Assembly: GCA_963717465.1 (NCBI GenBank)
Contig: OY970340.1
Span: 1,504,001-1,568,000 of the forward strand
Direction of reading: 5' to 3'
Length of the DNA stretch: 64,000 nucleotides
Origin: Candidatus Bathyarchaeota archaeon
Lineage (GTDB): Archaea > Thermoproteota > Bathyarchaeia > Bathyarchaeales > Bathycorpusculaceae
Translations under genes and position numbers: made by a program
Shown: positions 1 through 19,416 of the stretch, piece after piece
Layout of the letters: each line of letters opens with the position of its first letter
Numbering within the stretch: position 1 is the first letter of the stretch
Notes under the pieces: model-generated
The model's database searches: none
Seen by the model: only the letters and a program-made list of their open reading frames with translations
Told to the model about the DNA's origin: nothing

Positions 1-902
1 GTGTAAACAAGAGGCACCGCCTGGTCACAGGGCACCGAAATTGCTTTTCGGACTCCAAGATTCATATCCCACGGGTTCGGGTACTCAATTGGGCAGGTAT
101 CTCTGCATTCTCCGCATCCAGTGCAGTTCTGCGCGATAACGTAACGAGGATTTTTGCGAACCTTCACATGAAAGTTGCCGATGAATCCTGACACGCCAAC
201 TAAATCTGCAAAAGAAATAATTTGGATGTTAGGGTGACGACCAACATCAACCATTTTTGGTCCTTCAATACAAATGCTGCAGTCAAGCGTTGGAAACGTC
301 TTGTCCAGTTGAGCCATGTGTCCGCCGATGCTTTCGCTTTTTTCAACAAGGTACACTTTGATGCCCATTTCTGCTAAATCTAAAGCAGCGCTTATTCCAG
401 CAATTCCACCGCCAAGCACCATTGCCTTGTTCGTAACTGGAACTTCAATTCTTGTTAACGGTTGAAGCAATCGGGCTTTTGCAACCGCCATCTTTATTAT
501 ATCTTTAGATTTTTCCATGGCTTCTTCAGGCTGTCCAGAATGAGGCCACGAAGAAAACTCGCGGATGTTCGCTATCTCAAGCAGGAACGGGTTTAATCCA
601 GCCTCGGAAATTGTTCTCCTAAAAGTCTGCTCATGCATTCTTGGGGAGCAGGCAGCCACTACAACACGGTTAAGCTTGCTTTCTTTGATTGCTTTGCGTA
701 TTATTTCTTGTCCAGGATCAGCGCATAAGTACCGGTTTTCTTTAGCAACGACGACATCCGGCAACGTTTTTGAGAATTTCACAAGAGCCTTTATGTCCAA
801 TGTTCCAGCAATGTTCAATCCACAATGACAAATGAAAATGCCTATCCGTGGTTTTCCTATCTTTTGCTCAGGCGCTACATCAATTTCCGACGCGAGATTC
901 AC
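1..902 (-). CDS. hdrA: Heterodisulfide reductase subunit A, Cys-encoding paralog; 3' part runs off the window
   Basis: Manual translation: [15 protein letters not shown]...[12 protein letters not shown]...VLGGGIAGISAALDLA...[25 protein letters not shown]; open frame from a possible GTG at 902 to the window edge. Confidence 0.92.
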   Translation of the reverse strand, partial: MNLASEIDVAPEQKIGKPRIGIFICHCGLNIAGTLDIKALVKFSKTLPDVVVAKENRYLCADPGQEIIRKAIKESKLNRVVVAACSPRMHEQTFRRTISEAGLNPFLLEIANIREFSSWPHSGQPEEAMEKSKDIIKMAVAKARLLQPLTRIEVPVTNKAMVLGGGIAGISAALDLAEMGIKVYLVEKSESIGGHMAQLDKTFPTLDCSICIEGPKMVDVGRHPNIQIISFADLVGVSGFIGNFHVKVRKNPRYVIAQNCTGCGECRDTCPIEYPNPWDMNLGVRKAISVPCDQAVPLVY

Positions 903-15550: not shown

Positions 15551-15919
15551 CGTACCATTAAAACTCGCGAGCACTATCGAGCTTTTTTCTTATGGTACGT
15601 CTAACTTTTGCTAACACGCGCGGCGCTCGTTAGCTGCAGAATTATAGGTTTTTACTAAACTATGCATTTCTGAATTATTTTAACCGGTTACTCTTTTTTC
15701 TTACTTTTTCCTAGAACCTGTTCCTCGCACTCTTGTTTAGCACCATTTTACGATTGTTTAAGCCTTTATCGATTTGCATTCGCCGCTAATCTGAACCATA
15801 AAGAACAAGTCGAAGCTATTATTGATTAAGAAAATTGAGATAGTCATGTAGTGCTATTTAATAAAGGCAAGCAAGCAAATCAAGATACTAATTATTAAGC
15901 AAAAAAGTTGGTAGTTTAT

Positions 15920-18484
15920 TTAGACGGGTTTTCCCCCGTCGGTAGCTTTGGCAACTGGAGCAACAGGTTTTGCCACAGCTTGGTCGGCTGGTTTAGCTGC
16001 TGGGGCTGCTGCTGGAGCTGGGGCTGCTTTGCGTTTTAGCATGTTCTCTAGTGTTGGTTTAAGTTTTGCGTTTTCGGCTTTGATTTTGTCTTTTCCCAGT
16101 GTCTTAATTTGCTCGGTCATTTCCTTAACTATATCGGCGAATTTCGGTCCTTCAGCTGATGAAACATAATCAACCCTGAGTCTTTCTGGGCTCAACCCGA
16201 GCTTTTGAAGCATGCCAGATAAGGCATCCATGCGTGCTTTCATCTTTACGTTTCCAGAGATATAATGGCAATCGCTGGGAAGATGGCAAGCGGCAATCAG
16301 TACCCCTGCTGCTCCTAACCTAAATGCTTCCATAACGAAGTCCTTGTCCACTCGTCCAGTACACATTACTCGAATAGACCGTGTCATTGGCGGGTATTCA
16401 AGCCGGCTCGTCCCTGCACGGTCCGCGCCGGCGTAACCTCACCAGTTACACATAAACGTCAGTATCTTATCTTCCGGGTCTTTTTCTAGCGCACCCCTGA
16501 TTTGTGAGAATATTTGTTCATCCGTAAAGTGCATCTGAGTTAAAGCATCTTGCGGGCATTCTGCAACACATGTTCCACAACCGTGGCACATAGCCGCATT
16601 GATCTGGGCTGGTTGTCCCGGATTCGCAGTTATGGCTCCAAAGGGGCAGCTTTTTACGCATATTCCGCATTTTGCTTTTGCGTTTCTGCACTTGGCTACG
16701 TCAACTATCGAGACGATGGGTTCTATCAACCATTTGGGTTGAGAAAGGATGGTTGCAGCTCGTGCTGCTGCGCCGCTTCCTTGTGATACGCTGTAGGGTA
16801 TGTCTTTTGGTCCTTGGGCAGCGCCTGCTATGAATACTCCATCCATAGGTGTATCGATTGGTTTGAGTTTTGGGTGGCTTTCCATGAAGAACCCGTCTGA
16901 TCCTCGCGTTATGTGGAGGATGCTGGCTAATTCTTGGGCTCCTTTGCTGGGTATTGCGGCTGTGCTTAACACAACGAGTTCCGTTTCGAGATCGAGGGGT
17001 AGTCCCAGCGCCATGTCTTCTGCTCGTACAATCAAGTTTTTGGTCTTTGTGTCTTCAATTATGTTGGATGCTTTTCCCCTGATGAAGTTGATTCCCATTT
17101 CACGGGCTCTTCGATAGAATTCTTCGTAGCCTTTGAAGGGAGTTCGCATATCCATGTAGAGAATGTAGACTTCCACATCATCATGGTAATGTTCTTTCAG
17201 AAGGATGGCTTCTTTGAGCCCATACATGCAGCAGAAACCTGAACAGTACTCGAACTTGTTTATGTCCCGTGAACCGACGCAATTAATGAAAGTGACGCTT
17301 TTCGGTTTCTTTCCATTGGACGGGCGGATCATGTGTCCACTTGTTGGGCCGCCTGCTGTGATAAGTCTCTCAAACTCCAAAGCTGTAATTACGTTATCGT
17401 ATTTTCCATAGCCGTACCTGGCGTCGTCATAAGGCATATAAAAGTCGCAACCGGTTGTTACGATGATTGCTCCAACTTCCAATTCAACTTCTTCCGGCTT
17501 CTGATCAAAATTGATAGCTTCACGTGCACCACAAGCATCAACGCATTTGAAGCACTCTATGCAGTAATCCCTGTTTATTGAGTAGATAAGAGGCACTGCC
17601 TGATCAAACGGAATGGAGATAGCTTTTCTTAAACCTAAATTCATCTCAAACTCATTAGGATACTCTATTGGGCAAGCATCTCTGCATTCACCACAACCAG
17701 TACATTTTCCAGCCATAACGTACCTTGGGTTCTTGCGAACCTTCACTCTGAAATTGCCCACAAACCCCTCCACGTTGAGGACGTCCGCATTGGATATTAC
17801 TTGGACCTTAGGATGGCGATATACTTCCACCATCCTAGGTCCTTCTATTCATATGCTGCAGTCTAAAGTGGGAAAAGTCTTGTCGAGTTGTGCCATGTGA
17901 CCTCCTATGCTCGTGTTCTTCTCGACAAGGTATACTTGGAACCCCATGTTCGCCAAATCAAGAGCGGATTGGATGCCGGAAATGCCTCCGCCGATAACCA
18001 AGGCGTTTTTTGTCACCGGCACCTCCATGGTTTCAAGAGGCGCAAGTAACCTCGCTTTGGCAACAGCCATCCTTACAATGTCTTTTGCTTTTTCCGTGGC
18101 TTCTTTCGGAGTGCTGGGATGGCACCACGAAGAGAATTCACGTATGTTGGCCATTTCAAAAACATAAGGATTTAACCCTGCTTCACTTACGGTTTTCCGA
18201 AATGTTGGCTCATGCATTCTTGGGCTGCAAGCGGCTACAACGACGCGGTTTAGTTTGTGTTCTTTTATTGCTTTTCTGATTTCTTCTTGTCCGGGGTCGG
18301 CGCATGTGTAACGGTTCTCTTTAACTAAAACAACGTCAGGTATCGTTTTAGCGTATTCGACTACTTGTTTAATGTCAATTGTGCCAGCGATGTTTAAGCC
18401 GCAGTGGCAAACAAAAACTCCCACTCGTAAAGGTTCTGGTTGTTTGGCGGATTCAATTGGTTTCTGTGTTTCTTTATTGCTCAT
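15920..18484 (-). CDS. hdrA: HdrA-MvhD fusion (854 aa) with two in-frame UGA codons at positions 212 and 682; putative selenoprotein or readthrough product
   Basis: ORFs 17849-18484, 16439-17833 and 15920-16387 share one frame; junctions read TLDCSI*IEGPRM and [14 protein letters not shown]; both stops are TGA at conserved Cys/Sec sites. Confidence 0.88.
16402..16432 (-). promoter_or_regulatory. Stem-loop 6 nt downstream of UGA-682 (candidate recoding signal)
   Basis: GCCGGC-G-CG-GA-CC/GUGCA/GG-GA-CG-A-GCCGGC: 10 G-C pairs plus tandem G.A. Confidence 0.6.
17803..17842 (-). promoter_or_regulatory. Stem-loop 6 nt downstream of UGA-212 (candidate recoding signal)
   Basis: GGACCUAGGAUGGUGG-AAGUAUA-UCGCCAUCCU(A)AGGUCC: 16 bp including 2 G-U, one bulged A. 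Confidence 0.7.
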
Positions 18485-19416
18485 TTTGAAACCTCTTCAA
18501 CAAATAATCTTCTTTCTACTGCTTCCTTTCTTTTCGAGGCAGCAGCAGCTTTCAATTCTTTAATAGCCTCAACAGGTGAAGTAAGCCTTTCTAAGGATTT
18601 ATTCCATGTCCCTGAATGAATTGGAGTATGGTATATTTTGGTTCTTTTTAACCTTAGGGCTTCATCAACAGGACAAACCACTTTGCACGCACCGCAGAAA
18701 TCGCAAAAAACATCGTTCACATGAACTTTTTTATCCTCGCCAAGCGTTAAGGCTCCTGGTATGGGGCAGACGTCAAGGCAATCTCTGCAACCTTCAGGGC
18801 ATTTCTCCTGATCAATCTCTAATTATCCCTTCAATGCACTTTTTAACTTTAATCACTCCCGGTGCACATTTGAACTCGCAAACTCTGCAGGTTGGGCAAT
18901 ACTCTTTTTGAATGTCAAGGTTAACTCGCACATGTTTTTTTTCGTGTGGTGGCAATACATCTAGATTTTCCATTAGTTTGCCGTCGGATCAGTTTTTATA
19001 ACTTTAATTAAAGATAGAGGACATGCGCTTTCACACTCGACGCATTCCTTTGGGCACTGACGTGAATTTACCGTAATATCGCGGATGAGTGATGGATAGC
19101 TTTCTTTTGACAACACAGCAAGATCATGCTTGCCATTTAACGTCACTTTAATAGCTCCATATGGACAGGTGACGTCGCAAATACCGCAAAAACTGCATTT
19201 CGCTAAGTCAATGTCGACTTTGGCTTTCTTTGTTTTTTCTCCCTGCACCTTTGGTTGCTTTTCGAGTGTTATTACACCTTTTGGGCAGGCTAAACTGCAT
19301 ATTTGGCAGCCTACACACCGCTTTTTATCTAACATTAGCTTGAGATCCTTTACTGGCAAAATCCACTCTAAAGTTAAAGAATCTGCGGAGTTTTTCTTTA
19401 TTGTTTTTAAAGGCAC
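18481..19416 (-). CDS. Polyferredoxin (FwdF/MvhB-like), split by about two frameshifts
   Basis: Repeated CxxCxxCxxxCP motifs across frames ([56 protein letters not shown]); stop overlaps the hdrA start. Confidence 0.8.

Follow-up and report, generated by a model that had tools for sequence, protein, structure and literature searches.

Hairpins behind both UGA codons of a bathyarchaeal hdrA-mvhD gene as candidate intragenic selenocysteine insertion elements

The hdrA-mvhD gene and its two hairpins

An hdrA-mvhD fusion gene of 854 codons with two in-frame UGA codons for selenocysteine (Sec) is located on the minus strand at 15920..18484 of a 64,000-nucleotide stretch (the window) from the genome of a Candidatus Bathyarchaeota archaeon. 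Within the reading frame, each UGA is followed after a spacer of six nucleotides by a hairpin. The window lies in a single 3.05-Mb contig with 40% G+C. The gene was defined by translation with TGA read through, by Pfam domains and by orthologues with cysteine at the Sec positions (Cys-type). Its frame runs from 18484 to 15920, is unbroken only with both TGA read through, and ends with a TAA stop (15922-15920, minus strand). Pfam recognised the start of an FAD-binding domain, the ferredoxin-type clusters (Fer4) of HdrA and a complete MvhD (FlpD) domain at residues 674-797. The first codon, UGA-212 (17849..17851, minus strand), occupies the canonical Sec/Cys position of HdrA, with TGC or TGT in 41 Cys-type orthologues and TGA in 33 TGA-type orthologues. 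The second, UGA-682 (16439..16441, minus strand), belongs to the motif CNWUGY and is replaced by TGC or TGT in 42 Cys-type sequences and retained as TGA in 30 TGA-type sequences. It lies inside a domain, because the MvhD domain spans U682. The Cys-type orthologues share 65-76% identity with the protein and cover both UGA sites.

Both hairpins are encoded on the minus strand. The spacer AUAGAA (17843..17848), whose third-codon positions vary in orthologues (ATT/ATC/ATA), leads from UGA-212 to hairpin 1 (17803..17842). This hairpin has 40 nt with 16 pairs, one bulged A and the loop AAGUAUA, and a folding energy of -24.3 kcal/mol. Behind UGA-682, the spacer GGUUAC (16433..16438) precedes hairpin 2 (16402..16432), a GC-rich structure of 31 nt with the loop GUGCA and -20.8 kcal/mol. 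From its base, it consists of a GCCGGC stem, a G/A mismatch, two C-G pairs, a GA/GA internal loop, two G-C pairs and the loop. The distance from UGA to the loop is 22 nt for hairpin 1 and 19 nt for hairpin 2. The initial annotation, made from the letters of the window, had described hairpins six nucleotides behind both UGA codons; its coordinates and structures proved accurate to the base.

The stability of both hairpins is far outside the background of coding sequences. Against dinucleotide shuffles, the z-scores were -6.0 for hairpin 1 and -4.1 for hairpin 2. Synonymous-codon resampling with the codon usage of the genome reached equal stability in 0 of 1000 cases for hairpin 1 (z -5.7) and in 9 of 1000 for hairpin 2 (z -2.6), a comparison that the initial annotation had proposed and that both hairpins pass. 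Among 20,000 random in-frame positions in the long open reading frames (ORFs) of this genome, none reached the energy of either hairpin in a window starting at +7; four positions reached -18.8 in the 40-nt window and seven reached -15 in the 31-nt window. All 115,368 TGA triplets of the genome were folded in the same way. Only 20 had a window at +7 of -19.0 or below, and 12 of these 20 are the Sec sites of HdrA and of the molybdopterin oxidoreductases (MopB) described below.

A Cys-type paralogue of the gene is present at the left edge of the window (3..902, minus strand) with its N-terminal part, at 68% identity; it is one of the Cys-type sequences compared below. TGT at 272-270 replaces UGA-212, and there is no hairpin at +6. 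The segment from +7 to +46 folds with -12.0 kcal/mol into two small stems, and an 8-bp stem starts at about +22; the missing +6 stem and the shorter stem further on had both been seen in the initial annotation.

Conservation in TGA-type genes and contrast with Cys-type genes

TGA-type orthologues with 84-89% protein identity were obtained from a metagenome scan and a species-genome scan, in which the same organism may occur twice. They comprised 33 sequences (19 distinct) for site 212 and 30 sequences (10 distinct) for site 682. TGA and hairpin were kept together in all of them (33/33 and 30/30), with one sequence (locus L141) retaining the inner 11-bp stem alone of hairpin 1. Taken alone, the TGA-type genes from species genomes kept the hairpins in 15 of 15 cases at site 212 and in 16 of 16 at site 682. 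Differences between TGA-type hairpins are located in the third positions of the spacer, in the loops and in the first or last pair, or they preserve the register. For hairpin 2, the only changes among the 30 sequences concern the loop, the spacer, one terminal G-C pair turned into G-U (L126) and bases past the stem.

Conservation of the hairpins extends to synonymous sites. When 20 TGA-type sequences were aligned as nucleotides, synonymous diversity averaged 0.32 over hdrA-mvhD. When the 854 codons were scanned in windows of 13 codons, the 25 windows of lowest diversity all started at codons 210-220 or 674-687. The first zone of low synonymous variation covers codons 214-229 (17798..17845, minus strand) and has twelve codons with 0.00, three with 0.10-0.28 and one that was not scored. 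The second covers codons 685-697 (16394..16432, minus strand), with eleven codons at 0.00 and two at 0.15 and 0.24. Immediately outside both zones, synonymous diversity returns to 0.4-0.7. This is selection on the RNA itself, which within the gene is confined precisely to the two hairpins, and it is the strongest single result of the analysis.

The hairpins are linked to TGA and not to Cys codons, a contrast that the initial annotation had proposed to examine in homologues. The Cys-type orthologues, 41 at site 212 and 42 at site 682, have TGC or TGT without a hairpin. Folding energies do not overlap at either site. For +7 to +46 behind site 212, they range from -25.9 to -18.8 kcal/mol in TGA-type sequences (n=18) and from -13.1 to -2.9 in Cys-type sequences (n=41). 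For +7 to +37 behind site 682, the ranges are -20.9 to -19.0 (TGA, n=14) and -14.2 to -2.9 (Cys, n=42). Stem 1 is made by the amino acid replacements K>R, N>K, I>V and E>Q together with silent changes, and the peptide over the stem reads PKMVDVSRHPNIE in Cys-type proteins versus PRMVEVxRHPKVQ in Sec-type proteins.

Asgard archaea provided a control. These lineages are said, in passages of PMC4989117 and PMC11227280, to use eukaryote-like Sec insertion sequences (SECIS) behind the gene. HdrA or SelD were not found in the Asgard loci around PSTK/SelB, and the control was taken from whole chromosomes. Four Asgard chromosomes encode six HdrA/VhuD homologues with 22 in-frame TGA, several of them exactly at sites 212 and 682. 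The windows from +7 to +46 behind these 22 sites fold with -0.6 to -9.3 kcal/mol, which is background. The hairpin is therefore not a by-product of Sec at these positions.

Two further observations concern related genes. On three metagenome contigs (L157, L158 and L160), distant TGA-type MvhD sequences with 39-45% identity have a hairpin apex, GGACCUGGCAGGUUC, on the codons of hairpin 2. In a congener (L040, 3264-5772), tblastn found hdrA-mvhD in three frames, that is, with two apparent frameshifts, and both TGAs and both hairpins are intact. The frameshifts represent either an assembly error or a decaying gene.

Other selenoprotein genes, the 3' flanks and the Sec machinery

Hairpins at +6 recur in unrelated selenoprotein genes of the lineage. 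The genome has eleven MopB paralogues (Pfam Molybdopterin, Molydop_binding, Fe4S4) with TGA in the motif GSPNxxxxxxxxU, which we take to be the position of the Mo ligand. They are located on C1 (L061-L071), with TGA at 617083, 2799134, 2378454, 124642, 2055182, 1822504, 2495990, 480584, 1211628, 1134713 and 132694. Behind every one of these TGAs, a hairpin of the type CCCACG..AGCCU-UAGGAUU-AGGCU..CGUGGG starts at +6 (+7 in one case). In the alignment of these hairpins, 89% of the cells are paired and five pairs vary on both sides. The covariation score was reached by none of 500 shuffles, and slid controls fell to 23-47% pairing. The most divergent paralogue preserved the helix by a register shift (CCAACG/CGUUGG). 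Distant Cys-type MopB homologues have no hairpin. Covariation, which the initial annotation had proposed as a check, is real in the MopB hairpin and slight in the HdrA hairpins, where the synonymous constraint is the stronger signal. Among 201 genomes of the class, the TGA-type MopB family was seen in this genome alone. The closest MopB homologues within the class have 42% identity and are Cys-type, and three of the eleven copies (617083, 2799134 and 132694) appear truncated or broken.

The gene selD also has an in-frame TGA in Bathyarchaea. Ten distinct TGA-type selD sequences comprised six clear hairpins, one marginal hairpin and three weak stems. The six clear hairpins start at +6 or +7 and have the form AAGCU(U)CC..GGC-GAGA-GCU..GGAGCU(U). 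In the genome under study, selD (C1:951702, plus strand, L081) has its TGA at codon 14 and lies directly upstream of the first PSTK-aSelB gene with a gap of about 40 nt.

A ranking of all in-frame TGAs by codon usage and dicodons was tried as a way to list the selenoproteome and was rejected as too noisy. Nine high scorers outside MopB were checked by Pfam; seven look like adjacent in-frame genes or a transposase, one had no match and one belongs to the MttB family. An ORF of the MttB family (trimethylamine methyltransferase-like; C1:1121393-1122982, plus strand, L074) is in frame through a TGA at 1122407, which is flanked by 339 and 190 codons and has no strong +6 hairpin. This TGA may represent Sec, a split gene or a pseudogene.

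No signal was found in the 3' untranslated region (UTR). A search of the window with Rfam gathering thresholds yielded three tRNAs and nothing else. Rfam SECIS families had no hit at E-values up to 10 in hdrA-mvhD and its flanks, nor in 12 other selenoprotein loci. The 437-nt intergenic region past the stop showed less structure than shuffled versions of itself (z +1.4), and the 3' flank of hdrA-mvhD did not align with the flanks of the orthologues. In ten 3' flanks of 300 nt, a Loki-like pattern had one match versus 1.03 expected, and a Methanococcus-like pattern had none versus 0.005 expected. A small hairpin of the AAGAAUUCGUUCUU type behind the stop of most relatives was set aside, since it is not present in this genome. 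There is a T6 tract, likely an archaeal terminator, at 15901..15906 (minus strand), 13 nt past the TAA stop; the initial annotation had noted a T-tract soon after the stop. In each of the ten genes, oligo-T lies within some 10-30 nt of the stop, and the arrangement is present behind all nine full-length MopB selenoprotein genes that were checked. From general knowledge of archaeal terminators, these tracts probably terminate transcription.

The genome encodes a complete Sec machinery: SepSecS, two tRNA-Sec, selD with its in-frame TGA and two PSTK-aSelB fusions. The initial annotation had worked with a methanogen as the host. The host is instead a Bathyarchaeon with PSTK-aSelB fusions, and the machinery is archaeal all the same. 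The fusion ORFs have 732 and 730 aa with KTI12/PSTK, GTP_EFTU and aSelB_III domains in Pfam. The SelB part aligns end to end with aSelB of M. maripaludis (PDB 4ac9), and the match to bacterial SelB is limited to the EF-Tu-like domains at residues 280-575. The Pfam SelB-wing domain was not found in the fusion proteins, which have aSelB_III instead, and SelA had no match in this genome. The closest fusion proteins in public records share 67-77% identity. True SepSecS was present in 5 of 201 genomes sampled from the class.

The fusion is a published trait of Bathyarchaeota, according to parts of PMC8762117 and PMC9499178. The Bathyarchaeotal Sec system as presented in passages of Mukai et al. (PMC8762117) shares the PSTK-aSelB fusion, SepSecS, SelD and a tRNA-Sec with a U6:U67 mismatch, which both tRNA-Sec genes of this genome carry. 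Unlike that description, there are two fusion paralogues and two tRNA-Sec genes here. The term SECIS occurs 0 times in the main text of PMC8762117, and the examined passages of papers on the Bathyarchaeotal Sec system do not mention SECIS. Full-text literature searches did not reveal any account of Sec hairpins inside archaeal genes; more may be contained in subscription papers and in supplements, such as tables on Asgard archaea.

The two fusion paralogues (L002 and L003, at C1:953-955 kb and 2,827-2,830 kb) are 54% identical; each of the four remaining Sec-using genomes in the class sample has a single fusion. Of the pair, the second PSTK-aSelB adjoins the second tRNA-Sec and has altered GTPase motifs, namely GHCKHGKT in place of GHVDHGKT, EMPGN in place of DLPGH and SKID in place of NKID. 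Among the neighbours of the Sec genes, Pfam revealed no RNA-binding domain as a candidate for SECIS binding; these neighbours are transporters, a TIM-barrel enzyme, SCP2 and two ORFs without a Pfam match. In relatives, Sec-type hdrA-mvhD is part of a Sec gene cluster, with PSTK-aSelB within 10 kb and tRNA-Sec closely behind. The tRNA-Sec lies about 250-300 nt past the hdrA-mvhD stop in L117, L119, L120, L121 and L140, and placement in a Sec cluster was also observed in L172, L174-L183, L185, L186 and L189. In this genome, hdrA-mvhD is far from both Sec clusters. Typical Bathyarchaeal PSTK-aSelB together with Sec-type hdrA-mvhD was also found in records titled Sulfotelmatobacter, Nanoarchaeia and Limnocylindrales metagenome-assembled genome (L175, L176 and L180), which is probably mis-binning or mislabelling. 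Upstream of hdrA and on its strand, a 79-codon ORF without a Pfam match (18481-18720, minus strand) overlaps the start of hdrA, and a 147-aa two-cluster ferredoxin is encoded at 18973-19416 (minus strand). Both may form one operon with hdrA-mvhD.

Interpretation and relation to known SECIS systems

We consider both hairpins to be selected, cis-acting, codon-proximal recoding elements that mark the adjacent UGA as Sec, with a probability of about 0.7. In effect, they would then serve as the SECIS of the Bathyarchaeal Sec system. As in bacteria, they are located in the reading frame, and each UGA has an element of its own. In this genome, TGA is also a normal stop codon and terminates 253 of 1032 long ORFs; therefore, a local discriminator is needed for the Sec UGAs. 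The view of the initial annotation, a codon-proximal recoding signal unlike the canonical archaeal SECIS in the 3'UTR, gained support from the stability of the hairpins, the synonymous constraint, the contrast between TGA and Cys, the Asgard control and the negative results in the 3' flanks.

Place, number per UGA, shape and UGA-to-loop distance (19-22 nt) are bacterial-like, yet the factors are archaeal. Like the SelB-read SECIS of bacteria, with E. coli fdhF as the prototype, the elements are inside the reading frame right after UGA, one for each UGA, and they are simple stem-loops with a small apical loop and a sequence that is diverse between genes. The bacterial SECIS (bSECIS) model of Zhang and Gladyshev, as quoted in part of PMC13188914, describes a loop of 3-9 nt, an upper stem of 4-16 bp and a UGA-to-loop distance of 16-37 nt. 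Both hairpins fall into these ranges: hairpin 1 has a loop of 7 nt, a stem of 16 pairs and a distance of 22 nt, and hairpin 2 has a loop of 5 nt, a stem of 10 pairs and a distance of 19 nt. The G in the first two loop positions of bSECIS is present in hairpin 2 (GUGCA/GAGCG) at the first position. For hairpin 1, it is missing in this genome (AAGUAUA) and present at the second position in most relatives (AGGUAAA/AGGUAAU); the MopB loop (UAGGAUU) does not have it. A difference from bacteria is the archaeal host, whose factors are SepSecS, PSTK and a SelB of the archaeal type; neither SelA nor the winged-helix extension of SelB was found. The lower stem begins at a fixed +6 or +7 and not at or over the UGA.

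The euryarchaeal SECIS of Methanococcales and Methanopyrus, with a GAA_A bulge and a G/C-rich upper helix, belongs to the same domain of life and operates with the same class of factors (aSelB, PSTK, SepSecS). Hairpin 2 bears a loose likeness to its GAA_A motif, with a GA/GA internal loop under two to three G-C pairs and a small loop. In contrast, the hairpins described here are in the coding sequence, 6 nt from UGA, the combination of GAA_A, three S-S pairs and a long lower helix had no match in the ten 3' flanks, and hairpin 2 has GA/GA in its place. Reviews up to 2026 place the archaeal SECIS in the 3'UTR (passages of PMC13188914), and primary papers likewise assign it to UTRs. The Methanococcales type acts at a distance and is only rarely located in the 5'UTR. 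Passages of PMC9622424 locate the euryarchaeal element there, 88-679 nt away and without local codon context, and state that its communication with the ribosome and aSelB is unknown.

The eukaryote-like Asgard system (lokiSECIS) also serves hdrA with vhuD/mvhD, at identical Sec positions. A single 3' element past vhuD reportedly serves as many as six UGAs across some 2 kb (passages of Mariotti 2016, PMC4989117, and Huang 2024, PMC11227280). The Bathyarchaeal genes differ by an adjacent hairpin for each UGA, and the AUGA_GA core (kink-turn), which in Asgard archaea goes with a helix of roughly 9 bp and an A-rich loop, was not found in the 3' flanks.

The Sec redefinition element (SRE) of eukaryotic SEPN1 is likewise a coding-region stem-loop that closely follows a Sec UGA. 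It begins 6 nt past the UGA. The SRE assists a SECIS in the 3'UTR and is known from one gene family; here, no SECIS was found in the 3'UTR and several gene families have hairpins. Stimulation of read-through by this stem-loop downstream of UGA is reported in passages of PMC2248747.

An action in Sec insertion, the geometry on the ribosome and any binding of PSTK-aSelB are inferred. With UGA in the A site, the six-nucleotide spacer would bring the stem base up to the point where the mRNA enters the ribosome. This geometry is shared by frameshift and read-through stimulators and by the SEPN1 element. A hairpin at the entrance might slow the ribosome or hinder the action of the release factor. 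The upper stem with a G-containing loop might also be presented to PSTK-aSelB or to a putative adaptor. The four hairpin families have no motif in common, so the evidence leans towards structure and position over a sequence-specific reader.

A more far-reaching version is a third archaeal mode of Sec incorporation, in which the intragenic hairpin exactly 6 nt past each UGA is the sole SECIS. We regard the chances of this version as evenly balanced. The hairpin could be read by PSTK-aSelB, perhaps via the tRNA-binding PSTK part or domain IV, or it could act directly on the ribosome. This would be a bacterial-style solution on factors of the archaeal/eukaryotic type, either convergent or a relic of an arrangement ancestral to the 3'UTR SECIS.

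Several observations weigh against the reading of the hairpins as Sec recoding elements. The delivery factor is of the archaeal type and has no SECIS-binding module of a known kind. The TGA-type HdrA sequences all belong to a single clade; the contrast between TGA and Cys therefore represents one evolutionary event, and covariation in hairpins 1 and 2 is minimal because the clade is close. The three other Sec-using Bathyarchaea of the class sample considered here (G110, G037 and G103) offered no independent test for HdrA, because a TGA-type HdrA was not found in them. Most MopB sites are singly unremarkable against synonymous resampling (5 to 161 of 1000), a weak signal that is due to a Gly/Ala/Pro-rich peptide that folds well anyway. 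No sequence motif is common to the hairpins of HdrA, MvhD, MopB and SelD. The selD of this genome has no clear +6 hairpin, only a weak stem of 4-5 bp with -9.2 kcal/mol over 60 nt, and a stronger stem starts about 31 nt downstream of the TGA. The selD genes of the two nearest TGA-type relatives are also weakly folded, and the Cys-type selD of one congener folds well (-19.9). The selD picture is mixed and is the main evidence against a universal requirement for a hairpin: with the weakly folded selD of this genome, UGA decoding here does not always go with a strong +6 hairpin.

This selD, presumably decoded without a strong hairpin, would fit an accessory role. The hairpins would then be stimulators in the manner of the SRE, and a separate SECIS elsewhere on the mRNA or operon, so far unrecognised, would recruit aSelB. 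The geometry resembles that of the SRE, a purely structural action on the ribosome would agree with the lack of a common motif in the four hairpin families, and aSelB has no known hairpin-binding domain. Rfam, pattern scans and conservation all failed to reveal an element in the 3'UTR, however, and oligo-T about 10-30 nt past the stop in 10/10 genes also speaks against one. A hairpin for both UGAs of one gene would be needless under a SECIS that acts at a distance, and the Asgard genes with a 3' SECIS have no such hairpins at any of their 22 UGA sites. We judge the accessory role to be rather unlikely.

Synonymous constraint proves selection on RNA but not its purpose. A conserved RNA with a role unrelated to Sec, for example in mRNA stability, processing or pausing for cofactor insertion, might stand behind the UGAs by chance, and the stable structure kept by the Cys-type selD of the congener could be read in this sense. 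The position of the elements makes this very improbable: 854 codons contain only two such zones, both 6 nt past the only two UGAs, an identical spacing is seen behind the UGA in MopB and in SelD genes from other Bathyarchaea, and no hairpins are present in the Cys-type orthologues (41 and 42 sequences). That the UGAs are not decoded as Sec, with a split gene or pseudogene and terminator-like or chance structures, is hardly credible despite the apparent frameshifts of the congener copy in three reading frames, given that both TGAs persist in 33 and 30 sequences, with conserved coding regions on either side, align to a Cys that does not vary among the Cys-type homologues compared (41 and 42) and are accompanied by a complete Sec machinery, that the MvhD domain spans U682 and that the gene of relatives resides in a Sec cluster beside tRNA-Sec.

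As codon-proximal Sec elements, the hairpins would break the rule that SECIS are located in the ORF in bacteria and in the UTR in archaea and eukaryotes, since each Sec codon has its own adjacent hairpin in a system with archaeal factors and without the RNA-binding domain of bacterial SelB. A compact cis-element of 31-40 nt with fixed spacing would offer a handle for seeking the missing archaeal SECIS-binding activity. Pipelines that search for a 3'UTR SECIS in archaea presumably miss the HdrA-MvhD with two Sec and the eleven Sec-type molybdopterin oxidoreductases of this one genome. The arrangement may also have a bearing on how the position of SECIS evolved between the domains of life.

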